NCBI GenBank assembly: GCA_001818495.1 | Contig: MHKS01000005.1 | Location: 12,288-76,287 of the forward strand | Source: Candidatus Komeilibacteria bacterium RIFOXYD1_FULL_37_29 | GTDB taxonomy: Bacteria > Patescibacteriota > Patescibacteriia > UBA1558 > GWA2-36-10 | DNA: 64,000 bases | Direction of reading: 5' to 3' | Shown: positions 548 to 63,665 of the stretch, in pieces | Layout of the letters: the number at the start of each line of letters is the position of its first letter | How positions within the stretch are numbered: position 1 is the stretch's first letter | Translations under genes and position numbers: made by a program | The notes under the pieces: generated by a model | The model's database searches: none | Seen by the model: the letters and a program-made list of their open reading frames with translations, nothing else | Told to the model about the DNA's origin: nothing

Positions 548-1504
548 TTATTTTTTGGGAGTCCAGTCTGGTGTCAAAGGTTTATCACCTTGTAAATAAC
601 GATAGGCCTGCAAAGCGGCCTTACAACCCTCACCAGCGGATATAACGGCTTGTTTATAGGTAATCTGAGTGATGTCACCAGCGGCAAAAATCCCCTTAAC
701 ATTTGTTTCATTATCAACGGTGATTTTTATTTCCCCCCGCTCAGTCAAATTTAAATTTAAATTTTGTAGCCACTTCGTGCTGGCCAAATGACCAATCTCC
801 ACAAATATTCCATCTACTGCTATTTCTTCTTTTGGTCCGTCAGTGATTTGATAAACCAAAGCCTCCACCCGACTGGTGCCTTTGACTTCAGTAACCGCAG
901 CGTTAAAAATGATCTTAATATTCTTGGCCGCTCGCACTTGATCAACCAAAACACTTTCACCACGAAATTTATCTTTACGCACCAATAGATACACCTGGTT
1001 GGCCAGTTTAGACATATATTCAGCGGCATCCAAAGCCGAATTACCACCACCAATTACCACTACATTTTTACCCCGATACAATGGACCATCACAAGTAGCA
1101 CAATAAGTCACTCCCTTGCCGGTTAATTCTTTTTCTCCTGGTACTTCTAGATTTCTGGGTGTCAAACCAAAAGCCAAAATAATAGTTTTAGCTTTAATCA
1201 ATTTTTTACTACCAGTTTGTACTACAAAATCTCCGGTGCTTTGTTTTTCTATCTGACAAACTTCTTCAAATAAATATTCCACACCGGTTTTGGCCGCCTG
1301 AGCTTGAAATTTTTGAGCCAAAGCTAAACCGCCAATTGATTCAAAACCCGGATAATTTTCTACATCTTCCGTCAAAGAAATTTGACCACCAATGTCTTTG
1401 GAAATAACCAAAGTCTTCATGGAGCGACGAGAAGTATAAATAGCGGCTGTCAGTCCGGACGGACCAGCACCCACTATCACTACATCATAAACTTTATCTT
1501 CCAT
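548..1504 (-). CDS. trxB: thioredoxin-disulfide reductase
   Basis: 318 aa; N-terminal FAD motif VVIVGAGPSGLTAA and redox-active CATCDG. Confidence 0.9.
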   Translation of the reverse strand: MEDKVYDVVIVGAGPSGLTAAIYTSRRSMKTLVISKDIGGQISLTEDVENYPGFESIGGLALAQKFQAQAAKTGVEYLFEEVCQIEKQSTGDFVVQTGSKKLIKAKTIILAFGLTPRNLEVPGEKELTGKGVTYCATCDGPLYRGKNVVVIGGGNSALDAAEYMSKLANQVYLLVRKDKFRGESVLVDQVRAAKNIKIIFNAAVTEVKGTSRVEALVYQITDGPKEEIAVDGIFVEIGHLASTKWLQNLNLNLTERGEIKITVDNETNVKGIFAAGDITQITYKQAVISAGEGCKAALQAYRYLQGDKPLTPDWTPKK

Positions 1505-6754: not shown

Positions 6755-6780
6755 AATATTTGCCCTAATATTAGCAAAAA

Positions 6781-7033: not shown

Positions 7034-7122
7034 TGCTATTCACACCATATCAACTACCACCGATATTTTATCTGTGGTATAGTTATACACAGCTAATTTT
7101 TAGACTAAAAATCGCTAAAAAA

Positions 7123-8508
7123 ATGGAAAATAATGACAAAATTTGGGAAAAAACTTTAGGAGAATTAGAGCTCTTAATTAGTAAGGCCAACTTTACCACT
7201 TGGTTTAAAAACACCTTTGTTGCTACTATAGAAAATAACGATATCACCGTGGGCGTACCAAATGCCTTTACTAAAGTTTGGCTAGAAAAAAAATATCATG
7301 ACCAAATTATAGCCGCCCTAGAAAATGTCTTGTCTAAAAATAATCTACAAATTATCTACAAGGTTATTACTAAGGATAGGTCTGCGAATATTAGCCAAGA
7401 AAATACAAAAAAAGTTAATATTAGTAACGGAAAAGAAACCGAAACAATCCAAACATCCACCGAAAACCGCCAGCCAACAGTGGCCCGCTTTGGCTTAAAT
7501 ACTCAATATGTTTTTGAAAGTTTTGTAGTTGGTCCGGGTAATGAATTGGCCCAGGCTGCTGCCCATGCTGCTGCCCAAAAACCAGGCCAAATATATAATC
7601 CGCTCTTTATTTATGGTGGTGTTGGTTTGGGCAAAACTCACTTAGTGCAGGCTGTTGGCAACTATATTTTAGCCAAAGATCCCACTAAAAAGGTAGTTTA
7701 TATTAATAGTGAAAAATTTACCAATGATTTTATTTTTGCTATTAAATCCGGTCAAACTGATAAATTCAAACAAACCTATCGTAATATTGATGTTTTACTA
7801 ATTGATGATATCCAGTTTATCGCTGGTAAAGAGCAAACCCAGGAAGAATTTTTCCATACTTTCAACGCTCTTCATCAAAACAATAAACAAATTGTTATTT
7901 CTTCTGATCGCCCACCCAAGGCCATTCCGGGTATAGAAAATCGATTAATTTCCCGTTTTGAGTGGGGGATGATTGCTGATATTTCCGCTCCCGATCTAGA
8001 AACCCGTATGGCTATCTTAGAAATTAAGGCGCAAGAAAAAAAATATAAACTTAATAAAGATATTATTCACTATGTAGCTGAAAATATCCAAAATAACATT
8101 CGCGAACTAGAGGGTGCTTTAAATAGAATTATTGCCTTTCATCAACTAAACAACACCACACCCACCCTAGATAGTGTTAAGGCTATTTTGGGTGGTCTAT
8201 CTGCCAATCATCGCCGGGCCGGATTAACCCCACGTAAACTTTTAGAATCCATCAGCGTCTTTTATGATATTAGTATGGAAAACTTGCTCGGTGCTAGCCG
8301 TAAAAAAGAGCTGGTGGTTCCTAGACAAATCGCCATGTTTTTAATGCGGGAAGAATTAAAGGCCTCTTATCCCAACATTGGTCAAGAAATTGGGGGCCGA
8401 GATCACACCACCGCCATGCACGCCTGTATTAAAGTTACTACCTTAATAGAAATGGACGAAAAAATAAAAAACGATATCTTAATATTACGACAAAAAATCT
8501 ATGAATAA
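7123..8508 (+). CDS. dnaA: chromosomal replication initiator DnaA
   Basis: AAA+ Walker A GGVGLGKTHL, box VII, and a C-terminal DNA-binding domain. Start moved to MENNDKIWEK because the DnaA boxes lie upstream of it. Confidence 0.95.
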   Translation: MENNDKIWEKTLGELELLISKANFTTWFKNTFVATIENNDITVGVPNAFTKVWLEKKYHDQIIAALENVLSKNNLQIIYKVITKDRSANISQENTKKVNISNGKETETIQTSTENRQPTVARFGLNTQYVFESFVVGPGNELAQAAAHAAAQKPGQIYNPLFIYGGVGLGKTHLVQAVGNYILAKDPTKKVVYINSEKFTNDFIFAIKSGQTDKFKQTYRNIDVLLIDDIQFIAGKEQTQEEFFHTFNALHQNNKQIVISSDRPPKAIPGIENRLISRFEWGMIADISAPDLETRMAILEIKAQEKKYKLNKDIIHYVAENIQNNIRELEGALNRIIAFHQLNNTTPTLDSVKAILGGLSANHRRAGLTPRKLLESISVFYDISMENLLGASRKKELVVPRQIAMFLMREELKASYPNIGQEIGGRDHTTAMHACIKVTTLIEMDEKIKNDILILRQKIYE

Positions 8509-8782
8509 GTTGTTTATAAATTTTTAATAAGTCTGTAGATAAAAAATTATAAATTGTTAACAAACCCCGGACTTATAAACAAAAAATGGACATTCAAAAA
8601 TCACTGGGGATTAAATGACACTTATAAACAAAATTATTCATAACTTACCCCCACATAAAATATAAATAAAAACATAAATTAACTAGAGTTTTTCTCAAAA
8701 AATTTCTCTTATCAACATACCCACAGGCTCTAATACTAATACTTTATTTATATTATAATAATAACTAGTAAATAATAATTAT
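8509..8782. other. candidate oriC / DNA unwinding region between dnaA and dnaN
   Basis: Strongly AT-rich 274-nt spacer with three copies of the box-like TTATAAACA and one TTATCAACA; position is conserved for oriC in many bacteria. Confidence 0.4.
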
Positions 8783-9883
8783 ATGAAAATCGTTTGCACG
8801 CAGGAAAATTTAAACAAAGGATTATCTCTGGTTTCTAATATTGCCAATAAGAGTTCTAATCTTCCTATTTTAAACAATGTTTTATTAAAAGCCGACAAAG
8901 AAGGATTAACTCTGATAACCACCGATCTAGAAATAGGTATTAAGGCTCTTGTGCGCAGCAAGATAGAGGAGCAAGGAGAATTTACCGTTGATGCTAAGCT
9001 ATTACACAATTTCGTTTCTTTCTTGCCCAAAGAAAATATCGAACTAAATTTACAAGAAGATAGTTTGGAAATAAAAAGTTCCAATCAAGAGACCTCTATT
9101 AAGGGTTTGGTGGCCGAAGATTTTCCTCTTATTCCAGACATGGAAAAAACCAATATGGTAGAATTGCCGGTGCAGGAATTTAAAAAAGGACTACACCAAG
9201 TTATTTTAGCGGCTTCTTTGGACACCTCTCGGATTGAGATAAATGCTGTAAATTTTGATTTTCAAAATAATAATTTAGTGTTGGCAGCCACCGACAGCTA
9301 TCGCCTGGCTGAAAAGAAATTAAAATTAGCCAATGGTCAAAAAACTAGTTTAATCATTCCTCTTAAAACCCTCCAGGAATTAAGTCGTATTTTAAACGAG
9401 CAAGCTGAAAAGAAATTAAAGATTTATTTTAATGATAATCAAATATTGTTTGAGTTTGACGGAGTAGAGTTGACCTCTCGAGTTATTGATGGAAAGTATC
9501 CAGACTATAATCAAATTATTCCCGCCCAATTTAAAACCGAAGCCAAGTGTGAAATTAATAAACTGGTTCCCGCTATAAAATCAGTGGCGTTATTTTGTAA
9601 ACAGGGTATCAACGATATTCGTTTGAGCTTAGACAGCAAGAAACAAAAAATAGTTATTGCCACCGCCTCTTCTCACACCGGCACTTCGGTAGCCAAGGTA
9701 GATGCTAAAATATCCGGTGAGGACAACGATATTGTTTTTAACTATCGCTATCTTTTGGATGGTTTGGCACAACTGGGCAGTAGTGAGGTTAATATAAAAA
9801 TGAACAACAACGCCTCTCCAGGATTATTACAGCCGGTCAATGATGATAAATATATTTATTTGGTCATGCCTATTAGGCAATAA
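8783..9883 (+). CDS. dnaN: DNA polymerase III beta sliding clamp
   Basis: 366 aa with three-domain clamp architecture, immediately after dnaA. Confidence 0.9.
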   Translation: MKIVCTQENLNKGLSLVSNIANKSSNLPILNNVLLKADKEGLTLITTDLEIGIKALVRSKIEEQGEFTVDAKLLHNFVSFLPKENIELNLQEDSLEIKSSNQETSIKGLVAEDFPLIPDMEKTNMVELPVQEFKKGLHQVILAASLDTSRIEINAVNFDFQNNNLVLAATDSYRLAEKKLKLANGQKTSLIIPLKTLQELSRILNEQAEKKLKIYFNDNQILFEFDGVELTSRVIDGKYPDYNQIIPAQFKTEAKCEINKLVPAIKSVALFCKQGINDIRLSLDSKKQKIVIATASSHTGTSVAKVDAKISGEDNDIVFNYRYLLDGLAQLGSSEVNIKMNNNASPGLLQPVNDDKYIYLVMPIRQ

Positions 9884-35294: not shown

Positions 35295-35387
35295 AATTTT
35301 GTAGGTAGGAATAGCCCTCAGTTCTTTTATCAAAATGTGGTTGACTGCCAAAACCTTAAATCATTTTTAAAAAATATTTTAAATATT

Positions 35388-35720
35388 ATGTTTATAAAAA
35401 AAATCATCTTAGCTGTTCTATTATTTCTTCCCAGCCTAGCTCAAGCTCAGGGCGGAGTGCCGTTACCCAATCCTTTGGAAGCTGAAAGCATACCAGAGTT
35501 GGCTGGGCAAATGATTAAAGGTCTTTTAGGAGTCACCGGGGCCATTGCCTTGTTTATGTTGGTCTGGGGAGGTATAGTTTGGATGACTTCTGGGGGTAAT
35601 TCCAATCGCGTAGAGCAGGGTAAAAATACTATTTTATGGGCTATATTGGGGATAGTTATTATATTTATGAGTTATATTATATTGAATTTTGTCTTTGATT
35701 TGATTGGTGGCAATGCCTAG
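35388..35720 (+). CDS. secreted two-TM small protein, paralog 1 (VirB2/TrbC pilin-like topology)
   Basis: Sec signal peptide ending LAQAQ, then TM1, a WMTSGGN loop and TM2. Start moved to MFIKKIIL. Confidence 0.6.
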   Translation: MFIKKIILAVLLFLPSLAQAQGGVPLPNPLEAESIPELAGQMIKGLLGVTGAIALFMLVWGGIVWMTSGGNSNRVEQGKNTILWAILGIVIIFMSYIILNFVFDLIGGNA

Positions 35721-35802
35721 ACACTGTTGATAAAGAATTGTAAAAAAGTGATTTTTGTTTTATACTTTAATTAACATTTTATATTAGAAAGGGGGTGAAA
35801 CA

Positions 35803-36162
35803 ATGAAAAAAATACTTACTTCTTTATTGCTTTTATTACCAGTAGTAGCCAATGCTCAAACAAACCTAGAGGATTGGGGATACAATGATTTTTCAGACAC
35901 TGACATTAAATTAGGATCAAGACCTCTAAGAGACACAATTGGTGGTGTAGTAAACATCATTTTGGGATTTTTAGGAATTTTGACAACTTTAATTATTCTA
36001 ATGGGCGGCTTTAAGTGGATGACTTCACAAGGTAACACTGAAAAAGTTGATGAGGCTAAAAAACTTATCGGCGCTGGTGTTGTCGGTTTAGTTATCGTAT
36101 TAACAGCTTACGCCGTATCTAGATTCGTATTAAGCGAATTATATTCACAAACTGTTGTTTAG
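35803..36162 (+). CDS. secreted two-TM small protein, paralog 2 (VirB2/TrbC pilin-like topology)
   Basis: Signal peptide ending VVANAQ, then TM1, a WMTSQGNTEKV loop and TM2; strong SD (AAAGGGGGTGAAAC). Confidence 0.65.
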   Translation: MKKILTSLLLLLPVVANAQTNLEDWGYNDFSDTDIKLGSRPLRDTIGGVVNIILGFLGILTTLIILMGGFKWMTSQGNTEKVDEAKKLIGAGVVGLVIVLTAYAVSRFVLSELYSQTVV

Positions 36163-36172
36163 TTGACCTATT

Positions 36173-36212
36173 TAGTCTAGACTATAGTAGGTCATTAACT
36201 AATGACCTACTA
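36173..36212. promoter_or_regulatory. two abutting perfect palindromes (12 nt TAGTCTAGACTA and 28 nt TAGTAGGTCATTA-AC-TAATGACCTACTA)
   Basis: Read directly from the sequence, between paralog 2 and 3; no U-run follows. Confidence 0.4.
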
Positions 36213-36238
36213 GAGCTTATACTACATGACAAAAATAG

Positions 36239-36619
36239 ATGTTAAAAAAATTTTATAAATTATCCTTAGCTTTATTTTTATTTTTTGTGCCAGTATTTTT
36301 TGCGTCTGCTCAAGTGATTGGTCAAGATAGTTTAGCTACTGCCGCTCAAAAAGCTGGTTTTGGTGGAGAGACAGATGTTTATGTAATTATTACTCGTTTT
36401 ATCAACGGTTTCCTATCCATTTTTATGATGGTTTTTTTGTATTTTATTATTGCGGCTGGTTTTACTTGGATGACTTCTGGAGGTAATGCTGAAAAGATAA
36501 ATACCGCCAAAGAGACCATTAAATATTCATTGATTGGCATAGTTGTAGCTTTAACTGCTTATTCTCTGGCGCGGTATGTATTATTTGCTATGGGAGCGAC
36601 CACTGGTATTGTCAGGTAA
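36239..36619 (+). CDS. secreted two-TM small protein, paralog 3 (VirB2/TrbC pilin-like topology)
   Basis: Signal peptide ending FFASAQ, then TM1, a WMTSGGNAEKI loop and TM2. Confidence 0.65.
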   Translation: MLKKFYKLSLALFLFFVPVFFASAQVIGQDSLATAAQKAGFGGETDVYVIITRFINGFLSIFMMVFLYFIIAAGFTWMTSGGNAEKINTAKETIKYSLIGIVVALTAYSLARYVLFAMGATTGIVR

Positions 36620-41620: not shown

Positions 41621-43096
41621 ATGAAAAAAAACCTTAAGATAGTTTCCATATCTTCAGAGGTTGATCCATATTCTAAAACTGGCGGATTGGCCGACGTGGC
41701 TCGCTCTTTGCCCAAGTCTCTTTTTCGTTTGGGTCATCAGGTAATTATTATTACCCCATTTTATGAAAAAGTGATTGATCAGGGAGCCTATAAGCTGGAT
41801 AAAATATATAGCGATGTTAGTTTGTATATGGATAGTGGAAGTGAAATTAAGGTCGCCTATTATCGGACAGAACTAGTGCCAGGATTATCAGTTTATTTTG
41901 TGGGCAATGAAAAATATTTTTCTCGTCGTAAGCAAATTTATGGATCAGACCATGAAAATGCTCGTTTTTATGTATTTTCAGTCGCCGCTTTAAAGCTGAT
42001 ATCTTTATTAAAGTTTGATGCTGATATCATACATTGCCATGATTGGCATACGGGGCTTATCCCTCATTTGAAGAAAACTCGTTTTAAAGATAGTCATACT
42101 TTGGCCAAAGCAGCCACTGTTTATACTATCCATAATTTAGTTTTTCAAATGGGGCGTCCCTGGTGGGAGGTCTCCAGTAAGAATAAAGATAATGGTAAAA
42201 AAGCTTTACCACTTTTATCCGATCATAGCTTAGAGTATTTCAATTTTGCTAAACGGGGTATTTTGGAAGCTGATGTCATAAATACTGTGTCAGAAACTTA
42301 TGCCCAAGAAATAATGGCCAAAGATTTTGGTCAAGACCTCCATCGTATTTTGCTCAATCGTCGTCACAAGTTATTTGGAGTAGTAAACGGCATTGATTAT
42401 AAAAATTATAATCCTAAAACCGATCGGGGTTTATATAAAAATTATACGCCCGACAAAATAGATTTGAAATTATTGAATAAAAGGTATTTACAAAAGTTTT
42501 ATCATTTACCGGTCAAAGATAATATCCCGCTGCTTGGTTTTACTTCTCGGATTGCTGAGCAAAAAGGCCTGGATTTAATTGTCGAGATACTTCCGACCTT
42601 ACTTTTGCGTGATGTGCAATTCATTATTATGGGGGATGGTGATAAGGAATATATTAATAAAATAAAAAAAATTCAGCGAAGATTTCCGTCTAAATTGGTT
42701 TGTGTGTCTTTTGACAGAAAAATGGAGACCTCTGTTTATGCTGGTGGCGATATGTTTTTACTACCTTCTCGTTTTGAACCATGCGGTATTAATCAGTTGA
42801 TTAGTTTCCGCTATGGCTGCGTGCCGATTGTCCGCAGTATCGGTGGGTTGTCTGATACAGTAGTAAATTTTGATCCCGAGACCAATTCTGGTAATGGTTT
42901 TACCTTTAAACATTATAATGCTAGTGAATTTTTAGTGGCTGTGACCAGAGCTCTGGAGACATATAAATATAAAACTGCCTGGAAGAAAGTAATTAGGAAT
43001 GGTATGGATGTTTCATTTTCTTGGGACTTGCCAGCTATTAAATATGTTCAATTATACAAGCGAGCTATAAAATTTAAGAAAGAAAATGGTAAATAA
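41621..43096 (+). CDS. glgA: glycogen/starch synthase (GT5), paralog 1
   Basis: N-terminal EVDPYSKTGGLADV, the K-x-GGL nucleotide-sugar motif. Confidence 0.85.
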   Translation: MKKNLKIVSISSEVDPYSKTGGLADVARSLPKSLFRLGHQVIIITPFYEKVIDQGAYKLDKIYSDVSLYMDSGSEIKVAYYRTELVPGLSVYFVGNEKYFSRRKQIYGSDHENARFYVFSVAALKLISLLKFDADIIHCHDWHTGLIPHLKKTRFKDSHTLAKAATVYTIHNLVFQMGRPWWEVSSKNKDNGKKALPLLSDHSLEYFNFAKRGILEADVINTVSETYAQEIMAKDFGQDLHRILLNRRHKLFGVVNGIDYKNYNPKTDRGLYKNYTPDKIDLKLLNKRYLQKFYHLPVKDNIPLLGFTSRIAEQKGLDLIVEILPTLLLRDVQFIIMGDGDKEYINKIKKIQRRFPSKLVCVSFDRKMETSVYAGGDMFLLPSRFEPCGINQLISFRYGCVPIVRSIGGLSDTVVNFDPETNSGNGFTFKHYNASEFLVAVTRALETYKYKTAWKKVIRNGMDVSFSWDLPAIKYVQLYKRAIKFKKENGK

Positions 43097-44243
43097 AATA
43101 ACTTGGGTAAATTTTTTGCATATTTATCAACCACCTTGGCAAAGCAAGGGGGTGGTTGAGCAAGTGGCTAGCGAAAGTTATGATTATTTGTTGACTTTAT
43201 TGGAAAAATATCCAAATTTTACAATAAGTTTGAATATTTCTGGATCTTTGGCCGAGCAACTAAATGTTTATCGTCCAGATTTATTAAAAAGATTAAAATC
43301 TTTAATTACTTGTGGGCAAGTAGAGCTGACTGGCAGTTCTCATTATCATGCTCTATTACCACTACTACCTAAAGTAGAGATAAAAAGACAAATACAGTTA
43401 AATCAGGAAGCCATAGATAAATATTTTGCCATTAAAAAAATGCAGGGTTTTTATTTGCCGGAAATGGCCTATTCTGATCAGATAGCAAAAATAATTAAGC
43501 AGCTGGGATTTCGGTGGATTATTTTAGATCCGATACATTGTCCAGATAAGATCCAACCAGGATTCAACTATATTCACAAATCAACCGGTCTAAAGGTAAT
43601 TTTTAGAGATCGTCAGATATCAAAGTCCTATCCAGCGGAGATTATTTTTAATAAATTAAAAGATAATCAGTCTAGCCAGACAATTATTAGTGCTACGGAC
43701 GGTGAAATTTATGGCCATTTTCATGAGGATTGGCAGGGCTGTTTGGAAAAGATTTTATTAAACAAAAATTTGAGCATGCCGACAGTTTCTCAGTATTTGG
43801 AAGTTTTTCGGCCAGTGAAAAAAATTTCTCTTCGGCCAGCTTCTTGGGAGAGTCTAGAGAGCGAAATAAAAAAAGGCATTCCCTTTGCTTTGTGGGATCA
43901 TCCCCAAAATAAGATTCATCAGCTATTGTGGTCTTTGGTAGCTTTGTCTATTAAACTAGTCAATAAGTATAAACGAGACAAAAATTGGTCTTGGGCCAGA
44001 CAGCACCTAGATCGTGGCTTGACTTCTTGCACTTTTTGGTGGGCCAGCGCTCAAAAACCATCAGATTTTTCCCCTCTAACTTGGAATCCAGACATGATAG
44101 ACAATGGTGCAGAGGAACTGATTAGATCGGTAAGGTCTTTGAGCTTAGCCACTAGCCCAGAAAAGATTAAAGCCGAGAAATTGTATATGGGTATTAAAAA
44201 AAATACTTGGTTTAATCATTGGAATAAATATAATAAAAAATAG
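43086..44243 (+). CDS. glycoside hydrolase family 57 protein (alpha-glucan branching / 4-alpha-glucanotransferase-like)
   Basis: N-terminal NFLHIYQPPWQ, the HxHQP-type motif of GH57. Confidence 0.7.
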   Translation: MVNKITWVNFLHIYQPPWQSKGVVEQVASESYDYLLTLLEKYPNFTISLNISGSLAEQLNVYRPDLLKRLKSLITCGQVELTGSSHYHALLPLLPKVEIKRQIQLNQEAIDKYFAIKKMQGFYLPEMAYSDQIAKIIKQLGFRWIILDPIHCPDKIQPGFNYIHKSTGLKVIFRDRQISKSYPAEIIFNKLKDNQSSQTIISATDGEIYGHFHEDWQGCLEKILLNKNLSMPTVSQYLEVFRPVKKISLRPASWESLESEIKKGIPFALWDHPQNKIHQLLWSLVALSIKLVNKYKRDKNWSWARQHLDRGLTSCTFWWASAQKPSDFSPLTWNPDMIDNGAEELIRSVRSLSLATSPEKIKAEKLYMGIKKNTWFNHWNKYNKK

Positions 44244-44246
44244 TTT

Positions 44247-45314
44247 ATGAAGTTATCAGAAACTACTAAACAAAAAATCGCTCAGCTAATAGCCAAAGAT
44301 TTTGTTTGTCATATTTTTAATGAACGCTTGAAAAAGTATTATTCGGATTTTAAAGAAGTTAAAAGTATTGAAACAAAGCCTTTTAAAAAACATCTGGGAT
44401 TAACTAGTGCCGTCTTTGTAGTGGAGTATCAGATTAAATATCTGAGCAGTCAGGGCGCTTTAAAAGATTTGGATATTTTTGTTTCAGCTCATTCTGATGG
44501 TTCTAGAAAGGGAGCTTATGAAAAAACCAAGACTTTGTATGAGCATGGTTTTGGCCAAGGAAAATATAGAGTAACCAAACCTTTGTTTTTTTTGGATGAG
44601 CAACAAGCTTTTTTTTATGTCTCTTCCCCCGGCCGAAGCTTTTTTAGTTTTTTTCTAGAAAATACCCAAGCTGATTTGACCAAGGCTATGGAATTAATGG
44701 CTGGTTGGCTTAAACAGTTACACAATTTTGATACAAAAATAGCAAATTTTAAGTGGCCAATTTTTAATATTTTAGATATGGTACCTACTCCGCAAAAATT
44801 CGTTAAGGATTTTTATAATAGTAGTGACAAATTAGGCCAACACATGGATAATTTAGTCAAAGACCTTCAGGCTTTGGATTTAGAGTATCGTCAGAAAAAT
44901 AAAGAGACTTTAGTTTATGGTGATTTTCATCCAGAAAATGTCATTATGCGTGGTCTAGATGTCCAGGACATTGAAATGATTGATTTTACCGACATTGCTC
45001 TAGGAGATCCGATGATGGATATTGGTGCATTTATTCAGCAATTTGATTTTATGGGTCACAATTTTATTTCTCGCCCAGAGATTGATAGACACAAACAATC
45101 TTTTGTGGAAATTTATTTTGGTCAAAAATTTGAAGAAATTGATATTGAATATATTAACCGTATCAATTTATATCAGTCTTGGACGGCTATGCGCACCGCA
45201 GTTTTTCTTTTTTATATGAAAAATGTTTTTAATCCTATTGATGATCTTTTGCTCGATAGCATCAAGTATTTAGACATGGCCAAAAATAGTCAGCGCGCTA
45301 TTAATATTAGTTAA
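44247..45314 (+). CDS. APH/choline-kinase-fold phosphotransferase (maltokinase-like?)
   Basis: Catalytic loop GDFHPENVI and the IDFTDIALGDPMMDIGAF metal-binding segment. Confidence 0.6.
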   Translation: MKLSETTKQKIAQLIAKDFVCHIFNERLKKYYSDFKEVKSIETKPFKKHLGLTSAVFVVEYQIKYLSSQGALKDLDIFVSAHSDGSRKGAYEKTKTLYEHGFGQGKYRVTKPLFFLDEQQAFFYVSSPGRSFFSFFLENTQADLTKAMELMAGWLKQLHNFDTKIANFKWPIFNILDMVPTPQKFVKDFYNSSDKLGQHMDNLVKDLQALDLEYRQKNKETLVYGDFHPENVIMRGLDVQDIEMIDFTDIALGDPMMDIGAFIQQFDFMGHNFISRPEIDRHKQSFVEIYFGQKFEEIDIEYINRINLYQSWTAMRTAVFLFYMKNVFNPIDDLLLDSIKYLDMAKNSQRAINIS

Positions 45315-45315
45315 T

Positions 45316-45894
45316 ATGAAAAAACTTAAATACAATATTATTTTTGAAGGAGCAGAGTTAGCTGGCAAAAGCTACTTAATGAGTCAGGTTTATGATTATT
45401 TGGAGCCCAAATACAATAGTGGAGGCAAGATTATGGATGGTTGTCATTGGTTCAATTGCGATGTGGGAATTTTTGGTACCAAATTTGGTCAAAAAGCCCT
45501 CGAACATTATTTAGGACTGTTGGAGGATATAACAGATGTTAGTGTTATGATAGAAAAATTTCACCTGACGGAAGCAGTTTATCAAAAATTGTATAATCAG
45601 AAAGATTTTAATTTTTCCAAGATGGAAGAGCGGCTTTATAAGATAAAAACTAAGATTGTTTTATTAATTTTTGATGAAGATGAAAAATTACTCCAGCAAA
45701 GATTGGATGATCGCTTAAAATTGTACCATCACTATAGTCGGATTGCCAGTCGTCCGGCAGATTATATCAAACAGCAACAGCTTTATTTGGAGTTTATAAA
45801 AAAAAGTAAGTTAGATTATTTGATTATCAACTCATCGAAGTTGCCCAATCCGTCTTTGGTAGCTAAGATTTTGGAATTTTTAGGAGAAAAATAA
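45316..45894 (+). CDS. P-loop NTPase, nucleoside/nucleotide-kinase-like
   Basis: 192 aa with Walker A FEGAELAGKSY. Confidence 0.45.
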   Translation: MKKLKYNIIFEGAELAGKSYLMSQVYDYLEPKYNSGGKIMDGCHWFNCDVGIFGTKFGQKALEHYLGLLEDITDVSVMIEKFHLTEAVYQKLYNQKDFNFSKMEERLYKIKTKIVLLIFDEDEKLLQQRLDDRLKLYHHYSRIASRPADYIKQQQLYLEFIKKSKLDYLIINSSKLPNPSLVAKILEFLGEK

Positions 45895-45910
45895 TATTTA
45901 GGATAATTTT

Positions 45911-46756
45911 ATGCGCCAAGCTTTTATTGGTTTTGATGTCGGTGGCACCAACATTGCCGCCGGAATAGTTTCGCCCCATGGTAGGATTTTAAAGTTTATT
46001 TCTCATCCCGCTGAAGCTAAAAAAGGAAAAAAACAAATTGCTCAAAATACTCTATTAGTTTTGGATAGTCTTTTAAAATCCAATATTAGCTGTTTGGGGC
46101 TATGTTTGGCTTGGCCTAGTCCAGCCAATATGCCGCTAACCTTAGAGGAAATAAAGGGTATTATAAACAAGAAATATCGTTATCCAATTTATTTTGAAAA
46201 TGATGCCAATTTGTTTACTTTGGCCGAGGCTTTAATTGGTCAGGGTAAGAAATATAAAACAGTAGTGGGGCTGACTCTGGGTACTGGTATTGGTTGCGGG
46301 GTAGTAGATAATAAAAAGATTTTCAATGGGCGTGGTTTAGCTTCTGAATTTGGTCATGTTTCATTAAATTTTAATGGACCAGTTTGTGTTTGCGGTCAGC
46401 GCGGCTGTTTTGAGGAATATGCAGGATCTAGGACTTTGCGGCGCTTGGCTAAAAAATATAAATTATCCAGTCAAACTGGTCGCGAGCTTTATGATTTAGC
46501 CAAAGGTGGAAATAAAAAAGCCTTAAAAGTTTGGCAGGACTTTGGTAAAAATTTAGGCCTAGGTTTAAATGGCGTAATCAAGGCCTATGATCCAGATATT
46601 ATAGTTTTGGGTGGTCAAATATCTCGGGCTTATCAGTTTTTCAAAGGAGCTATGTATCAAGAGTTACGCTACAGGCCATTTTTTAAACTACCAATCATTA
46701 AAGTGTCAAAGTTAAAAAACGCAGCCATTGTGGCAGCCGCTTTTATGGACAAATAA
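45911..46756 (+). CDS. ROK-family glucokinase
   Basis: N-terminal FIGFDVGGTNIAAG and the ROK zinc motif CVCGQRGCFE. Confidence 0.8.
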   Translation: MRQAFIGFDVGGTNIAAGIVSPHGRILKFISHPAEAKKGKKQIAQNTLLVLDSLLKSNISCLGLCLAWPSPANMPLTLEEIKGIINKKYRYPIYFENDANLFTLAEALIGQGKKYKTVVGLTLGTGIGCGVVDNKKIFNGRGLASEFGHVSLNFNGPVCVCGQRGCFEEYAGSRTLRRLAKKYKLSSQTGRELYDLAKGGNKKALKVWQDFGKNLGLGLNGVIKAYDPDIIVLGGQISRAYQFFKGAMYQELRYRPFFKLPIIKVSKLKNAAIVAAAFMDK

Positions 46757-46858
46757 ATTAAGCAAAGCTTTCGATTAAAAGCGTCTTTTTAGTAATAGTC
46801 TAAGGAGGCGTTTTTTGGTATAATGATGGTATTAAATATTATTTAAAAACTAGCAATA

Positions 46859-48343
46859 ATGGCCGATAATAAATTAGAAATAGTCATGACTGGAGCAGAG
46901 ATGTCGCCGTTTGTTAAGGTTGGTGGTTTGGGTGATGTAGCCGGATCATTACCTTTAGCTTTGGCTAAATTGGGTGTTAATGTTAAGTTTTTTCTGCCAC
47001 TTTATGGAGCCATTGATAGAAATAAATTTAAAATTAAACAGTTTAAAAAAGATTTTAGTGTCATAATACACGGACAAGAACATTTTTTTGATATTTATCA
47101 AACCAAATTGGCGACGGGCGTCAATGTTTTTTTTATAAAAAATGAGGTGTTTGATTTCGCGGATATTTATATTGGTGGTCGCAAATATCTGGACAAGAAT
47201 AAACAGGGGGTTTATACCCGTAAGCTCAGCGACATAAAAAGATTTGTCTTTTTTTCCAAGGCAGTAGTGGAAACCATAAAACAATTGAAATGGCAGCCAG
47301 ATTTGGTCCATGCGCATGATTGGCATACGGCTATGTTGCCAGCTTTTATTGATGAATATAGCCTAAAATATGATAATTTTAAAAATATTAAGAGTCTTTA
47401 TACTATTCACAATTTGGCCAACCAAGGAGTAGCTGGTTTGGATATCTTAGATTATGCTGGTTTGGATAAAGATTTGAGTCCAGCAGTTATGGAAGATTAT
47501 CATGATCAGGACGGTGGCAAAATCAATGCCATGAAATTGGGTATCTTATCAGCTGATTATATCAATACTGTCAGCCCCAGCTATGCTAAAGAGATCTTAA
47601 CCAAAGAATATGGTGCTCATTTAGAAGAGTATTTGAATCGCCGGAAAAAACATTTAGTGGGTATTTTAAATGGTTTGGATTTTAAGTTATTTGATCCAGC
47701 CAAAGATAAAAACATCGGGCAGAATTATTCAGTTAAAGATTTTTTAAAAGGTAAGGAGAGTAATAAACAAGTTTTACAAAAAGTTAGCCAATTACCAGTC
47801 AGAGATGTTCCGGTTTTTGGTTTGGTGTCTCGTTTGGTTGCCCAGAAAGGCCTAGATATTTTACTGGAAGCCCTAGAAGAAAGGATAACTCAGTTTGATT
47901 TTCAAATAATAATACTGGGCACGGGACAAAAATATTTCGAAGATCATTTTAGGTCCTTAGCGCAAAAATATCCAGAAAAATTCGCGGCTCACATTGGTTT
48001 TTCTCTGCCTTTGGCGCAAAAAGTTTATGCGGGAGCGGATTTTTTTCTAATGCCATCTCGTTTTGAGCCTTGTGGCTTGGGGCAAATGATAGCCATGCGC
48101 TATGGGGCTATACCAGTAGTCCGAGCTACTGGGGGGTTAAAAGATACAGTAGTCGATAATAAAACCGGTTTGGTCTTTAAGGCTTATAATAAACAGGAAA
48201 TGGGGAAAGTTTTGGATAGATCTTTGACCCTCTATAAAAATAAAGCCAAATTTGTTAAAATTTTAAAGGCTGGGATGGAACAAGATTTTTCTTGGGACAA
48301 ATCGGCTAAAGAGTATTTGAAGCTCTATAATAAATTGAAATAG
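46859..48343 (+). CDS. glgA: glycogen/starch synthase (GT5), paralog 2
   Basis: N-terminal MSPFVKVGGLGDV plus GT-B C-terminal motifs; roughly 30% identical to paralog 1 by eye. Confidence 0.85.
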   Translation: MADNKLEIVMTGAEMSPFVKVGGLGDVAGSLPLALAKLGVNVKFFLPLYGAIDRNKFKIKQFKKDFSVIIHGQEHFFDIYQTKLATGVNVFFIKNEVFDFADIYIGGRKYLDKNKQGVYTRKLSDIKRFVFFSKAVVETIKQLKWQPDLVHAHDWHTAMLPAFIDEYSLKYDNFKNIKSLYTIHNLANQGVAGLDILDYAGLDKDLSPAVMEDYHDQDGGKINAMKLGILSADYINTVSPSYAKEILTKEYGAHLEEYLNRRKKHLVGILNGLDFKLFDPAKDKNIGQNYSVKDFLKGKESNKQVLQKVSQLPVRDVPVFGLVSRLVAQKGLDILLEALEERITQFDFQIIILGTGQKYFEDHFRSLAQKYPEKFAAHIGFSLPLAQKVYAGADFFLMPSRFEPCGLGQMIAMRYGAIPVVRATGGLKDTVVDNKTGLVFKAYNKQEMGKVLDRSLTLYKNKAKFVKILKAGMEQDFSWDKSAKEYLKLYNKLK

Positions 48344-48347
48344 CCTT

Positions 48348-49286
48348 ATGTCTAAAATGAAAAAGCCAGAGTTAAGAAAAGATTATATTCAGGAGAAGTA
48401 TGTTATTATTGCACCCAAACGCGGTAAAAGACCGCATGATGTTATCAAACCAACAGATCATCATAAGCAAATGGTCTCTTCTTGTATATTTTGTCCCAAC
48501 AATATTAAGGAGGTTCGCAGTTTATATAAAAAAGGTGAGGGAGAAAATTGGGCTATCAATGTTATTGCCAATAAATATCCGGCGGTATCGCTAGATAATG
48601 ACAAAGCTTATGGTACCCAAGAAGTGGTGATAGAAACAGCAGATCATACTTTAGAACTGGAAGATTTGTCCATTGAGCAGATTGCTGATTTACTGGAAGC
48701 TTATGCCTGGCGTACTAAGGAAATATCCAAAGATGATAAAATTGATTATATTTTAATTTTTAAAAACGATGGTGGTGTAGCTGGTGCATCTTTACAACAT
48801 GCCCATTCTCAGATTTTTGCCACCAATTTTTTACCGCCGCATTTGGTAGACAAATCTCAGCGACAGCAGGCCTACAAACTGGAGCACGGTAATTGTGTTT
48901 ACTGTGATGTGCTAAAAAAAGAGTCCAAAGGACCCCGCTTAGTTTATCAAGATAAAGAAGTAATGGCTTTTACTCCTTACGCTTCTATGTTTAATTATGA
49001 AATATGGATTATGCCCTTAAAGCATCGGGATAATATCACTGAGTTATCAGCTCCAGAACGGCATTCTTTTGCTAAAATACTGAAGCATATTTTGATAAAA
49101 ATCGGTCAACTAGATTTGCCTTATAATTTTTATTTTCATCAGATCATCAATGATAATGATCAGCATCTTTATATGAAAATAGTGCCCCGCGGATCAGTCT
49201 GGGCTGGAGTAGAGATTGGTTCTGGTCTCATTATCAATCCGATTGATCCCGATGATGCTGCTGAATTTTATCGACAAGGATTATGA
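48348..49286 (+). CDS. galactose-1-phosphate uridylyltransferase-family (HIT-like GalT / ADP-glucose phosphorylase-like) protein
   Basis: Zn site CIFCPNN and the nucleotidyl-His motif HAHSQIF. Confidence 0.65.
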   Translation: MSKMKKPELRKDYIQEKYVIIAPKRGKRPHDVIKPTDHHKQMVSSCIFCPNNIKEVRSLYKKGEGENWAINVIANKYPAVSLDNDKAYGTQEVVIETADHTLELEDLSIEQIADLLEAYAWRTKEISKDDKIDYILIFKNDGGVAGASLQHAHSQIFATNFLPPHLVDKSQRQQAYKLEHGNCVYCDVLKKESKGPRLVYQDKEVMAFTPYASMFNYEIWIMPLKHRDNITELSAPERHSFAKILKHILIKIGQLDLPYNFYFHQIINDNDQHLYMKIVPRGSVWAGVEIGSGLIINPIDPDDAAEFYRQGL

Positions 49287-54171: not shown

Positions 54172-54205
54172 AAAAAAACGCCCTAGCTATTGGGGCGTTT
54201 TTTTA
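54172..54205 (+). terminator. intrinsic terminator after PBP1A
   Basis: AAAAAAACGCCC-tagctatt-GGGGCGTTTTTTT. Confidence 0.7.
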
Positions 54206-54451
54206 ATAGCCTTCGTTAGCGTGAATGTGGTTGGCTTTTTCGGCGCTGAGCTCATCCTCATTTATTTTTTCATTAAGCGGATTAGCGGAGTTTAGAAAAA
54301 CTAAGAGCAGGCCCATAATTAAAGTAGTGATTGATAGCCACAGTGGCATAAAAATTTCCCAAATATTAAAAAAGGCCAAACAGGCTAAAATGACCATAAA
54401 AATACCCATAGTAACGTTAAAAACGGTTGGACAGTAGCAATATTTTCCCAT
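54203..54451 (-). CDS. hypothetical small two-TM membrane protein
   Basis: 82 aa with two hydrophobic helices; weak evidence. Confidence 0.35.
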   Translation of the reverse strand: MGKYCYCPTVFNVTMGIFMVILACLAFFNIWEIFMPLWLSITTLIMGLLLVFLNSANPLNEKINEDELSAEKANHIHANEGY

Positions 54452-54521: not shown

Positions 54522-55649
54522 TTGTCAATTTTGCTTATTTGGTATAAGATAATCTTTGATATGAATAAAAAAGTTTTAGTTTTTGGAAAATTTGATATTT
54601 TTCATCCTGGTCATAAATATATCTTAACTGTGGCCAAAAAATTGGGTCAGGTCACGGTGGTTTTGGAGTCTGATCAAGCCATTAAGAAATGGGGTCATTA
54701 TCAACCATATCATGATCAGAATTTTAGAAAGCACAAATTGGAGAAACTCGGTTTTCGGGTTTTTGTCAGGCACTTGGAGCAGGGCGCTGATTATATTATT
54801 GATAGCCTTAGGCCAGATATTTTATGTTTAGGGGAGGATCAAAAACTTTTACAAAAAATATTTTCACCTTTTCCTAATATAAATTTGGAAATTATAAAGT
54901 TTATCAAAAGCAATTTATATAAGTCTTCACATCTTACGCCAATTTTAGAAGACCTCACGGCGGGGGTATATTTAATTGATAAACCCAAGGGAGTCAATTC
55001 TTTTCGGGCAGTAGCGGTTATTAGAAAAGTTTTAAATATGAGGCGAGTGGGTTTTTCTGGTACTTTAGATCCTTTGGCCTCGGGATTATTGATTGTCGCC
55101 ACTGGTCGAGCTACCAGATTATTAGATTGGTTTCATGATTTGCCCAAAACATATCAGGCCAAAATAGTTTTTGGGAAAGAATCGTCTAGTTATGATTTGG
55201 AAATGCCGGCATTAGAAAATAAATCAGCTAAATCTTTTACTAAAAAACAGCTAGAAAAAGTCCTAGCTGGTTTTATGGGTAAAAAAATACAAACCACGCC
55301 AATTTATAGTGCCAAAAAAGTACAGGGAGAGAAAGCCTATTTGCTAGCCCGTTCTGGTCAAAGTTTTAAGCCGCCTATTCAGGAGATAGAAATTTATAAA
55401 TTGAAAATAAATAAGTTTAATTATCCTTATTTAAGTTTAACAGCTACTGTTTCGGCTGGCACTTATATCAGGTCACTAGCCCATGATTTGGGGCAAGCGA
55501 TGAAAACGGGAGCAGTGCTGATTGATTTAGAGCGCATGGTCATTGGAGATTTTAAACTCAAAAAATCTTTAGCCCTTGAGCAGATTAACAAGGCTAGTTT
55601 GGCTAAGTATAAAATAGCGCCGGCTACTATTATAGAGCGCTTAAGTTGA
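54522..55649 (+). CDS. truB: fusion: HxGH cytidylyl/adenylyltransferase-like domain (archaeal RibL/TagD-like) + tRNA pseudouridine-55 synthase TruB
   Basis: The N-terminus VLVFGKFDIFHPGHKYIL..VTVVLESDQAIKK..PDILCLGEDQ matches the RibL/TagD nucleotidyltransferase core. The C-terminus LIDKPKGVNSF..GTLDPLASGLL is TruB. One uninterrupted 375-codon ORF; the start may be MNKKVLVF at 54561. Confidence 0.75.
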   Translation: MSILLIWYKIIFDMNKKVLVFGKFDIFHPGHKYILTVAKKLGQVTVVLESDQAIKKWGHYQPYHDQNFRKHKLEKLGFRVFVRHLEQGADYIIDSLRPDILCLGEDQKLLQKIFSPFPNINLEIIKFIKSNLYKSSHLTPILEDLTAGVYLIDKPKGVNSFRAVAVIRKVLNMRRVGFSGTLDPLASGLLIVATGRATRLLDWFHDLPKTYQAKIVFGKESSSYDLEMPALENKSAKSFTKKQLEKVLAGFMGKKIQTTPIYSAKKVQGEKAYLLARSGQSFKPPIQEIEIYKLKINKFNYPYLSLTATVSAGTYIRSLAHDLGQAMKTGAVLIDLERMVIGDFKLKKSLALEQINKASLAKYKIAPATIIERLS

Positions 55650-55878
55650 TATATTGACCAGTAATGTCTTTGATAAAACGCTCGATGTTTTCTTCTTTAA
55701 ATTCAGTTTCTTTCATTTTTTTGGCAAAATCATATAAACGCAGAGTTCTTTCACCCATTTCGCCTAGGCGTTCCTCATAGATTTTATTGAATTTTTCAGT
55801 GCTAGTTATAGAATCATTGGAATAATATAGTTTTTCTATAACCAACCTCTGCTCCTCGGGAGATATGTATTTATCCAT
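55630..55878 (-). CDS. hypothetical protein
   Basis: 82 aa charged ORF with no recognised motif; convergent with truB and overlapping it by 20 nt. Confidence 0.3.
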   Translation of the reverse strand: MDKYISPEEQRLVIEKLYYSNDSITSTEKFNKIYEERLGEMGERTLRLYDFAKKMKETEFKEENIERFIKDITGQYINLSAL

Positions 55879-62049: not shown

Positions 62050-62994
62050 TTATTTTATCTCTTTGAGGAAAGACTCAGCTAATTGAGCAGTTTCTGCGCT
62101 AGCTTGATAAAAGTTTTTCCAGACGACGACTATATCAGCATCATTAAAAGTCGCTCGTTGGACTTCTCTTATTGTATCTCCTCCGGCGATAGCTACTAAT
62201 ATATTATAGTTTCCCTTAATTTGTTTTATTTGATAGTAGGGAATTTGTTTTTCTTTAGAAAATTCAGTCTCATCAACTCCTCTATGAAGTATTACTACAT
62301 CGGGGAGTTTTTTTAATTTTTTTAAAACAACTATCGCACTTTCAACATTCATCATATCAATCATTGAATCAACGTTGAATTTTTGGCATTCCTCTATAAA
62401 ATTATCAATTGTTTCAATCGGCGCTACTCCTAGACATGTTACGGCATTAGCGCCGGCAGTAGCCATCATTTCTACTTCGCGGGCGGCTAAGTCGGCACAT
62501 TTACTATCGGCTACTATATATGCTCCAATCGGAGCCATTGCTTTTATCCGTGATACAGCTTCCGTTCCGTATATTTTTATTAAAGGTGTTCCCGCTTCAA
62601 TTAAAATTCTATCGGAAGTCGGTAGTTGCCAAATAATTTCCCTTGCTTCTTCCAGAGTACTATTGAGGGCTACCTGAAGATATTTTTTCTTTTTTTCTAA
62701 TCGGGTTGTTTTATTGAATAATAAGCTAGGAATTTGCAACGGCATAGCAGATTTGAGGGAGCTGATTTTTTCTAAAATTGGTTGAGTATTGTTAGCTAAA
62801 CTGTTTGGTAGTTTATTTACTGTCTTTAGATAATTGGCAAAATCGGGATTTAAATATTTTAATTTTTTTCTTAAGAAAATCATAAGGGCAATTATACCAA
62901 TAAATCCCAAAATTGGATTTCTGAGCAAAATAATAATAAGACCAACAATTATTAGGACTGCTAGGTTAAGATTTCGGGGTTTTTTATTTTCCAT
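62050..62994 (-). CDS. 3-hexulose-6-phosphate synthase / KGPDC-family (OMPDC suprafamily) protein with an N-terminal roughly 100-aa two-TM extension
   Basis: The C-terminal 210 aa align with HPS (YLQVALN.., EAGTPLIK, VADSKCADLA = AD-x-K-x-x-D, LHRGVDE, AGG). The N-terminus adds two hydrophobic helices. The ATG sits 2 nt after the upstream paralog's stop. Confidence 0.65.
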   Translation of the reverse strand: MENKKPRNLNLAVLIIVGLIIILLRNPILGFIGIIALMIFLRKKLKYLNPDFANYLKTVNKLPNSLANNTQPILEKISSLKSAMPLQIPSLLFNKTTRLEKKKKYLQVALNSTLEEAREIIWQLPTSDRILIEAGTPLIKIYGTEAVSRIKAMAPIGAYIVADSKCADLAAREVEMMATAGANAVTCLGVAPIETIDNFIEECQKFNVDSMIDMMNVESAIVVLKKLKKLPDVVILHRGVDETEFSKEKQIPYYQIKQIKGNYNILVAIAGGDTIREVQRATFNDADIVVVWKNFYQASAETAQLAESFLKEIK

Positions 62995-62996
62995 AG

Positions 62997-63665
62997 TTAT
63001 TTAACCAATTTCAAAAATTCTCGCGCTAAATTAGCAGTATTTTTAGGGTTTTCATAAAAAGACTTCCAAATAACCGTAATATCAGCGTCATTAAAAAAGC
63101 TTCTCACTACATCGCGTGGCATTTCTCCACCAGCCACTGAGATTAGAACATTGCCGTAAGTGCCTTTGATGCGGTGAATTTGATCGTGTGGTATTTTTTT
63201 TCCATTTTTATTTTCATTTTCATCTACTCCGCGATGTAAAACAACTACAGTTGGAAGTTTTTTTAATTTTTGTAAAATCTCAAAGGGAAATTCTATATTC
63301 ATCATATCAACCATTGAATCAATGCCGGCTTTTTCACACTCCTTGATAAATTCATTTATAGTGGCTATTGGTGCCAAACCTAAACAAGTAGCGGCAGAAG
63401 CGCCAGCAGTAGCTACTGCCTCAACTTCCCGAGATCCCCTATCCATACATTTTAAATCAGCCACAATATAACCCGGTTTATGTATTTTTTCACTCCACCA
63501 GTTTTTTAAGGTACTGATGCCACTCTGTCCATATTTTTTAATAAAAGGAGTACCGGCTTCAATAATTATTTTTTCCGAAGCCGGAAGTAGGGTAATCATT
63601 TCTCTGACATCAGCCAGAGAACGATTAAAAGCAATTTGTAGATATTTTGATTTGCGATTTAGCAT
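62997..63665 (-). CDS. 3-hexulose-6-phosphate synthase / KGPDC-family protein (soluble paralog)
   Basis: 222 aa with YLQIAFN, EAGTPFIK, VADLKCMDRG and LHRGVDE, the same family as the downstream paralog. Confidence 0.7.
   Translation of the reverse strand: MLNRKSKYLQIAFNRSLADVREMITLLPASEKIIIEAGTPFIKKYGQSGISTLKNWWSEKIHKPGYIVADLKCMDRGSREVEAVATAGASAATCLGLAPIATINEFIKECEKAGIDSMVDMMNIEFPFEILQKLKKLPTVVVLHRGVDENENKNGKKIPHDQIHRIKGTYGNVLISVAGGEMPRDVVRSFFNDADITVIWKSFYENPKNTANLAREFLKLVK

Follow-up and report, generated by a model that had tools for sequence, protein, structure and literature searches.

Why does a gene deposited as a tRNA pseudouridine-55 synthase gene (truB) begin with a stretch that resembles a nucleotidyltransferase? 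The question is raised by a locus in the 64,000-nucleotide (64-kb) stretch of contig MHKS01000005.1 of Candidatus Komeilibacteria bacterium RIFOXYD1_FULL_37_29, a member of the Patescibacteria with a tiny genome. The whole stretch is referred to as the window. An open reading frame (ORF) at 54522..55649 on the plus strand is free of internal stops, and an earlier note on this DNA had read it as a minimal HxGH nucleotidyltransferase domain of the RibL/TagD type fused in front of TruB. Taken from the ATG at 54561, from which all residue numbers are counted, the coding sequence (54561..55649, +) specifies a RibL-like::TruB fusion protein of 362 amino acids (aa) plus stop, identical to the Candidatus Komeilibacteria protein OGY94435.1 (UniRef100_A0A1G2BZ22). 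Residues 1-125 (54561..54935, +) form a RibL-family HxGH nucleotidyltransferase domain, predicted to be a flavin mononucleotide (FMN) adenylyltransferase, and residues 134-362 (54960..55646, +) form the TruB tRNA pseudouridine-55 synthase domain. The deposited protein and its homologues are currently annotated as TruB alone.

The fusion is real, old and conserved in a clade of Patescibacteria, and does not stem from faulty assembly. Assemblies from NCBI, JGI, ENA and Logan together contain 15 contigs with exactly this 362-aa sequence, and the identical protein is deposited under three NCBI accessions (OGY94435.1, OGY95146.1 and OGY96575.1) from three Candidatus Komeilibacteria metagenome-assembled genomes (MAGs). 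A survey of orthologues, as suggested in the earlier note, returned approximately 50 full-length homologues at 33-86% identity that contain both Pfam domains and share the architecture of the single uninterrupted ORF; their named sources are all Patescibacteria or simply "bacterium", and one of them lies on a 1.04-Mb contig. The possibility that a sequencing error conceals a stop between the domains finds no counterpart in these data: the junction, with the pattern (F/Y)KSSxLxxxLxDxxAGxxLIDKP, is free of indels in all 29 aligned full-length homologues, and its segment HLTPILEDLT (residues 124-133; 54930..54959, +) is of constant length in the same 29. Stand-alone RibL-like proteins terminate a few residues past the KSS motif. 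Ten positions of the N-terminal domain (G9, F11, H15, P16, G17, H18, R56, G91, D93 and Q94) are invariant in the 29-fusion alignment. Mean pairwise identity among the aligned fusions is 40% for the N-terminal domain and 53% for TruB, with a correlation of r = 0.80 between the two; the two parts have thus shared their evolution as a single gene, under purifying selection.

The identity of the N-terminal domain is ambiguous in single-sequence searches, in which RfaE-II, TagD, PPAT and RibF-related enzymes are all candidates. Pfam places CTP_transf_like (PF01467) at residues 7-94 with 27.5 bits (cut-off 21). A profile of 20 fused N-terminal domains (the A2 profile) was run on all PDB sequences and on RibL proteins at the same database size. 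It matches 3glv, a 143-aa protein of Thermoplasma volcanium, over its full length with 95.9 bits (E 1.9e-26), the characterised RibL of Methanocaldococcus jannaschii (Q58579 / WP_010870692.1) with 103.7 bits, and further archaeal RibL-type proteins with 99-110 bits. The remaining solved subfamilies score lower: TagD 58-62 bits (E 7e-16), Fom1 CyTase 54, HldC 47, ECT 39 for its best single domain (E 2e-18), CCT 27.5, PPAT 25, NMNAT/NadR-type enzymes 24 and the RibF-type 3op1 21. Because the profile scores RibL some 40 bits above every other solved subfamily, the domain is assigned by its sequence to the RibL lineage, the archaeal flavin adenine dinucleotide (FAD) synthase family, and not to TagD, HldE, PPAT, NMNAT or a RibF remnant. 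The choice between RibL, TagD, PPAT and NMNAT, which the earlier note had left to profile comparison, thus falls clearly on RibL, at 103.7 bits against at most 62 for the others. Direct comparison with RibL_METJA gives an hhalign probability of 99.8% (E 1e-28) across 126 columns, including the C-terminal FHSS/YKSS, and 34% BLASTP identity over 122 aa (E 8e-17).

The motifs and the predicted structure agree with this assignment. Positions G9, F11, D12, H15, G17, H18, R56, G91, D93 and Q94 are family-invariant and are all kept in the window protein; H15, G17 and H18 are invariant in 181 of 181 aligned RibL-family members, and D93 and Q94 show little or no variation within the family. The motifs quoted in the earlier note are present as G9-x-F11-D12-x-x-H15-P16-G17-H18 and L90-G-E-D93-Q94, to which Y120-K-S-S123 can be added. 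In the family alignment the HxGH signature H15-P16-G17-H18 (54603..54614, +) lies inside G9-K-F-D-I-F-H-P-G-H, and L90-G-E-D93-Q94 (54828..54842, +) is the RibL-typical LGxDQ motif. The C-terminal serine motif Y120-K-S-S123 (54918..54929, +) corresponds in alignments to FHSS in RibL_METJA and to NSSSS in 3glv; it represents a degenerate version of ISSTxxR. GxFDxxH(P)GH, R56, P85, LGxDQ and the C-terminal SS are shared by the window protein and 55 fused domains. The only cysteine present is Cys89, which is not a conserved residue and is kept in 14 of the 29 fusions, and the conserved cysteine pair is absent. The AlphaFold2 (AF2) model of the full protein has a mean predicted local distance difference test score (pLDDT) of 89.6 and a predicted template-modelling score (pTM) of 0.82 (range among models 0.81-0.82), and the N-terminal domain modelled alone has a pLDDT of 89.2. 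Instead of some unrelated fold, the models show a five-stranded Rossmann-like nucleotidyltransferase fold of five beta-alpha units, whose top Foldseek matches in the PDB are Fom1 CyTase, 3glv, TagD and HldC (E 4e-8 to 3glv, Fom1 CyTase and TagD). Pfam, AF2 and Foldseek thus concur on the minimal HxGH fold that had been proposed.

Models of the other subfamilies fall far below their cut-offs. Among the TagD, HldE-II and archaeal PPAT subfamily models, TIGR01518 scores 29.4 bits (cut-off 165.4), TIGR02199 39.8 (cut-off 181.5), NF001985 34.4 (cut-off 104) and NF041124 19 (cut-off 290). The NMNAT reading was set aside at 24 bits with the A2 profile against 103.7 for RibL. For the RibF type, PF06574 matches residues 3-30 only, with 15.4 bits against 27, and NF004158 scores 14 against 396. 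No Flavokinase match is present in the Pfam results for the protein, and the earlier note had correctly seen no riboflavin-kinase domain in it.

The TruB part is similarly well defined. TruB_N is found at residues 155-303 (E 1e-44) and TruB_C_2 at 304-347, and the TruB equivalog model TIGR00431 of NCBIfam reaches 185.5 bits (cut-off 151.45), aligning over model positions 2-209 of 210. The predicted catalytic aspartate, D170 in G-T-L-D-P-L-A-S-G (codon 55068..55070, +), is invariant in all 29 aligned fusions together with K196, Y198 and R304. The C-terminal PUA domain carried by Escherichia coli TruB has no family match in the TruB part according to Pfam, in which TruB_C_2 is partial as well (model positions 1-44 of 66). 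At approximately 229 aa, this part is about as short as the unfused TruBs of Patescibacteria (approximately 250 aa). It is best classed as a minimal TruB and not as a non-member of the family. The earlier description of a canonical TruB of about 240 aa therefore stands as regards the equivalog assignment and the invariant active site, and is to be narrowed to a minimal version in which no PUA domain is detected.

The gene probably starts at ATG 54561, 39 nt downstream of the TTG at 54522 that was chosen as the ORF-finder start and taken over by the earlier note. This ATG is favoured because MNKK opens the sequences of the homologues and of the deposited protein. A promoter-like site, TTGTCA-17-TAAGAT (54522..54550, +), has the TTG in its first hexamer; it is a consensus match only and ends 11 nt before the ATG.

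The closest unfused TruB (P0062, 54% identity, 261 aa) lies in the same synteny as the window: in both, the order is PBP1A, a small minus-strand ORF, truB, a second small minus-strand ORF, rpsT, a DNA-alkylation repair gene, holA and polA. A fused relative (P0018) shares this arrangement, and a 39%-identical fusion (P0084) keeps truB-rpsT-holA-polA. In neighbour-joining trees, the main group of N-terminal fusions has N-terminal domains that make up a single clade, which lies among stand-alone sequences of Patescibacteria and DPANN archaea; in the TruB tree, fused and unfused proteins are interleaved. The simplest reading would be that the fusion took place once, long ago, at the truB-rpsT-holA-polA locus in the ancestor of a clade of Patescibacteria, and that the domain was later lost several times; the trees are crude, and the number of fusion and loss events is correspondingly uncertain. 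TruB evidently works without the N-terminal domain, because close unfused TruBs occupy the same locus.

This is not the only union of TruB with an FMN adenylyltransferase. When 1.84 billion cluster representatives (50% identity) were searched with a profile and the sequences inspected, at least 10 were seen to have the reverse order, TruB followed by a C-terminal RibL-like domain (P0257-P0264, P0266 and P0372). One example is OGY76649.1 of Candidatus Jacksonbacteria, and the arrangement is seen at loci L093 and L095. The setting of L093 resembles that of an N-terminal fusion (L091), with ruvA, femAB and uvrB upstream and rpsT downstream. In the neighbour-joining analysis, the RibL-like domains of the reverse fusions are closest to stand-alone proteins and fall outside the N-terminal fusion clade; pairwise identities do not settle whether they derive from that clade by permutation. 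The reverse order would imply that an independent fusion took place or that the domains were permuted. P0256, another N-terminal fusion, distinct from the main group, has a shorter junction and also falls outside the main N-terminal clade. The RibF family is likewise involved: P0370 (L096 5001-6737) combines TruB, FAD_syn and Flavokinase within a nusA-ylxR-infB-rbfA-nrnA operon of a Firmicute-like genome, and P0278 joins TruB to FAD_syn but has no kinase. Fusions of TruB with FMN adenylyltransferases have thus arisen several times, with two families and in both orders. In Bacillus subtilis, truB lies directly upstream of ribC (PMC9820800), and ribF is described as lying near truB in mycobacteria. 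The parallel with truB-ribF that the earlier note had drawn is strengthened by the reverse-order TruB-RibL-like fusions and the TruB-RibF fusions, and the recurrent joining provides contextual evidence by which the RibL-like domain can be taken as a functional counterpart of the RibF adenylyltransferase module.

The RibL-like domain has other fusion partners. A NUDIX domain follows it in L014 (4010-4819) and L026 (4007-4813), a D-Ala-D-Ala dipeptidase (Peptidase_M15) follows it in L048 (4001-4933), and the rRNA methyltransferase TlyA (S4+FtsJ) precedes it in L024 (3269-4399). The NUDIX fusions are explained by gene order, since Ham1+NUDIX genes are neighbours of the stand-alone gene in L010, L012, L016 and L019. 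At least some of the fusion partners are therefore plain neighbours that have merged in compact genomes.

The fused-domain profile identified 577 clusters, among which the best matches are stand-alone proteins of 125-160 aa from Patescibacteria (Magasanik-, Parcu-, Buchanan- and Jacksonbacteria) and DPANN archaea. Some of these copies are named "FAD synthase" (NCBI/UniRef) and many "FAD synthetase" (JGI), names that are based on homology. A scan of GTDB species genomes gave at least 600 matching stretches, from which 80 loci were kept. Among the matches listed, relatives occur only in Archaea and in records of Patescibacteria or related candidate phyla, including some mislabelled "uncultured Gammaproteobacteria"; the archaeal ones, again among the matches listed, belong to Woese-, Nano- and Micrarchaeota, Methanobacteriota, Thermococci, Sulfolobales, Desulfurococcales and Asgard archaea. 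The presence of a RibL-like family in Patescibacteria contrasts with the literature, in which RibL orthologues are held to be confined to Archaea. The stand-alone gene in Patescibacteria typically lies within greA-lysS-[ribL-like]-serS-alr (at least 13 loci). In several Patescibacteria, a fusion gene of Ham1 (RdgB-type NTP pyrophosphatase) and NUDIX is inserted between the ribL-like gene and serS (L010 4392-5423; L012 4389-5345; L016 4409-5449; L019 4409-5428), sometimes preceded by an HD-domain gene. The neighbours of stand-alone copies are thus often nucleotide house-cleaning enzymes (Ham1+NUDIX, MazG, HD) and not flavin genes. No stand-alone RibL-like paralogue of a fusion-bearing genome was found among the 80 loci kept from the at least 600 matching stretches, and tblastn against the window, with RibL-like, serS, lysS and greA queries, found only the fused RibL-like copy.

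Three further observations concern this family. In L069 (2071-4399), a stand-alone ribL-like gene is immediately preceded by genes for a PNPOx-like FMN-binding protein, a MazG-like protein and an EamA-family transporter, which overlap its start; the group may be related to flavins, and is a single case. In a micrarchaeotal locus (L077 4001-5340), a convergent TruB/Cbf5-like gene follows the ribL-like gene. The RibL homologues of Crenarchaeota (Sulfolobales and Desulfurococcales; L045, L049, L051, L053, L056 and L059) have an additional N-terminal region of approximately 70-100 aa.

With moderate confidence, we interpret the protein as bifunctional, with two independent activities, those of a putative FMN adenylyltransferase and a putative tRNA pseudouridine-55 synthase. 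Residues 1-125 would be an FAD synthase of the RibL family (ATP:FMN adenylyltransferase, EC 2.7.7.2), in which the two histidines, together with the serines at the C-terminal end, would keep the phosphates of ATP in place while the phosphate of FMN attacks the alpha-phosphate, yielding FAD and pyrophosphate. Residues 134-362 would serve as the TruB of the organism, converting U55 of tRNA to pseudouridine by means of Asp170. The two activities would work independently, and the fusion would mainly secure their co-expression, an arrangement that is favoured because the domain has been lost from close TruBs and has been fused elsewhere to plain neighbours. The RibL-like enzyme may make FAD from salvaged FMN for flavoenzymes such as TrxB. 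A thioredoxin-reductase-like pyridine-nucleotide-disulphide oxidoreductase (TrxB-like; 548..1504, −) is encoded in the window, is FAD-dependent and is a likely consumer of FAD. The truB-ribF linkage of many bacteria would then have been repeated with a non-orthologous FAD synthase. Parcubacteria have been reported to be without ribF, ribK and ribL while retaining MurB and TrxB (Nelson and Stegen, 2015; PMC4508563), and also to be without riboflavin synthesis, transporters and FMN riboswitches (PMC4508563).

Several points weigh against this interpretation. We infer FMN as the substrate from approximately 34% identity to RibL, and the activity is a predicted one in this bacterial branch. No riboflavin kinase or other source of FMN is found among the annotated ORFs of the window, and no flavin transporter, second adenylyltransferase or FMN riboswitch is seen in its 64 kb. 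The repeated fusion of TruB in both orders may indicate a functional coupling of the two domains, and the supporting neighbour-joining trees are of the crude kind described above. Lastly, the subclade of the window protein carries replacements at positions that are each at least 85% conserved in the remaining RibL family (T10, A36-R37, K46, G73 and R119): T10K, A36E, R37S (by which "ARD" becomes "ESD"), K46G, G73R and R119I. The window residues at these columns are K10, E36-S37, G45, R70 and I111, the first four being encoded at 54588-54590, 54666-54671, 54693-54695 and 54768-54770, respectively, according to the family alignment. The resulting GKFD and LESD changes are conserved inside the subclade, and basal members of the fusion clade retain the canonical G[TA]FD and ARD motifs. 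These replacements weaken the case for RibL membership and do not exclude it; they could signal altered specificity or substrate binding.

It is on these replacements that the strongest alternative turns, namely that the domain is an active nucleotidyltransferase of the RibL lineage that has drifted to another substrate, such as another phosphorylated cofactor precursor or a sugar- or alcohol-phosphate, and is no FAD synthase. Six well-conserved positions have been altered and the alterations kept, and the serine of the window protein at the "ARD" position is shared with TagD, CCT and HldE, as the searches show in part. The frequent presence of house-cleaning genes, and not flavin genes, around stand-alone copies and the reported absence of riboflavin kinase from Parcubacteria (PMC4508563) also accord with such a drift. 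The retention of G[TA]FD and ARD in basal fusion members shows, however, that the fusion predates the changes, and every catalytic and family-invariant residue is still in place. The RibL profile score exceeds those of all other solved subfamilies by the margin noted above, and the positional parallel with the TruB-RibF fusions suits an FMN adenylyltransferase. We regard a change of substrate as unlikely, if worth keeping in view.

A second alternative holds that the two domains are coupled, the RibL-like module serving TruB or tRNA metabolism by delivering FAD to a flavin-dependent enzyme that modifies tRNA beside position 55, by sensing ATP or FMN and so regulating pseudouridine-55 formation, or by acting on RNA. 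It would account for the repeated joining of TruB to RibL-like domains (N- and C-terminal) and to RibF (C-terminal), for the fusion of a RibL-like domain with the rRNA methyltransferase TlyA in L024, and for the position of stand-alone genes between lysS and serS; the pTM of the full-length model and the fixed length of the linker further suggest a defined arrangement of the domains. Against this, close relatives have a TruB at the identical locus without the N-terminal domain, and the domain, which mostly occurs by itself, is elsewhere fused to unrelated enzymes (NUDIX, D-Ala-D-Ala dipeptidase) that had simply been adjacent to it, fusion of neighbouring genes being expected in compact genomes. 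No flavin-dependent tRNA enzyme is seen in the window, and action on RNA is not known for any HxGH enzyme of such size. This alternative appears improbable. A new accessory domain for TruB, which had been one of two suggestions in the earlier note, is for the same reasons less likely than the other, a lineage-specific solution for FAD synthesis, given the unfused TruBs in the same synteny and the occurrence of the domain alone or on unrelated enzymes. There is a slimmer chance still that the repeated joining of TruB and FMN adenylyltransferases, the widespread truB-ribF operon included, reflects a real coupling of tRNA T-loop modification with flavin synthesis; possible forms are the handing over of FAD to a flavin-dependent tRNA- or rRNA-modifying enzyme, the control of pseudouridine-55 formation by FMN or FAD, and an RNA-directed nucleotidyltransferase. 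That a frameshift or misassembly merged two genes, or that the N-terminal part is the decayed remnant of a RibF module, as its sub-threshold FAD_syn match might suggest, has practically no chance of being correct in view of the 15 contigs and three MAG accessions, the indel-free junction in a family of approximately 50 homologues, the purifying selection on the domain and the 21 bits of RibF-type 3op1 against 104 for RibL.

The conserved RibL-family domain of these bacteria, stand-alone or fused to TruB, is a candidate for the FAD synthase that has been reported missing from Parcubacteria/Patescibacteria that keep the FAD enzymes MurB and TrxB. The independent TruB fusions with two FMN-adenylyltransferase families, in both orders, offer a handle on the truB-ribF linkage, which has long been noticed and left unexplained, and annotation as TruB alone conceals a predicted second enzymatic function. 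The protein had already been deposited as TruB, and no description of the fusion of a RibL-family domain to TruB was found in the searchable literature on the fusion or on FAD synthesis in the candidate phyla radiation.

The fusion gene is bordered by two small minus-strand ORFs. An 82-aa ORF convergent to truB (55630..55878, −) overlaps the stop end of truB by 20 nt and has no Pfam family match; ORFs of similar size are found in this position in distant relatives (79 aa in L004 and 75 aa in L091), and it is probably a real, conserved small gene. Between PBP1A and truB lies an 82-aa hydrophobic ORF (54203-54451, −) with approximately two transmembrane segments and faint Pfam matches only, and its counterpart in the unfused relative L004 is 80 aa long. 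Elsewhere in the window, a replication-origin-type neighbourhood with yidC, rnpA, dnaA and dnaN is found at 5410-9883. Three tandem small genes at 35337-36619 (+) match T4SS_pilin/TrbC-type pilins. A glycogen/alpha-glucan cluster at 41621-49286 (+) comprises two GT5 starch-synthase-like genes and genes for a GH57 enzyme, an APH-like kinase, a ROK kinase and a GalT/HIT-like transferase, and is followed by an HAD hydrolase gene. Two adjoining genes at 62050-63665 (−) both match the OMP decarboxylase/HUMPS family.

Among known systems, TagD, HldE domain II/HldC, ECT/CCT and archaeal PPAT share with the N-terminal domain the fold superfamily and the HxGH motif, and are represented among its top Foldseek matches. 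They differ in that their family models remain far under cut-off and their profile scores are approximately 40 bits below that of RibL. RibF/RibC is comparable in that RibF likewise has an HxGH FMN adenylyltransferase as its N-terminal module, its gene adjoins or lies near truB, and it too has been fused to TruB (P0370 and P0278). The window domain is nevertheless not of the RibF type, has no flavokinase domain and is located upstream rather than downstream of TruB. The TruB-RibL-like reverse fusions (OGY76649.1; P0257-P0266 and P0372) contain the same two domains with both catalytic motifs intact and come from related lineages and similar genomic settings (L093 as L091), but have the opposite domain order.

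The closest characterised enzyme is RibL of M. jannaschii (MJ1179, Q58579), described by Mashhadi et al. (2010; as cited in PMC5397151 and PMC8305020). Both have the minimal HxGH fold of approximately 130-150 aa, with 34% identity between them, and the motifs GxFDxxHPGH, QR, PD-x3-LGxDQ (LGPDQ in RibL_METJA) and C-terminal SS. Unlike RibL, the window domain is bacterial (Patescibacteria), is covalently joined to TruB and has a predicted activity; it is also without the cysteine pair to which the air sensitivity and metal binding of the M. jannaschii enzyme are tied, and its subclade is altered at T10, R37, K46 and G73. A RibL homologue of Entamoeba histolytica, EhFADS, also lacks the two cysteines and is an active, ATP-specific FAD synthase (PMC11423594). 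Because this active enzyme is without the pair, the pair does not define the family. EhFADS resembles the window domain in being a non-archaeal RibL homologue with no cysteine pair and a degenerate ISSTxxR motif, and differs in being a stand-alone eukaryotic protein that was acquired from archaea and has no TruB. By analogy, it may serve as a precedent for the activity of divergent members of the RibL family.

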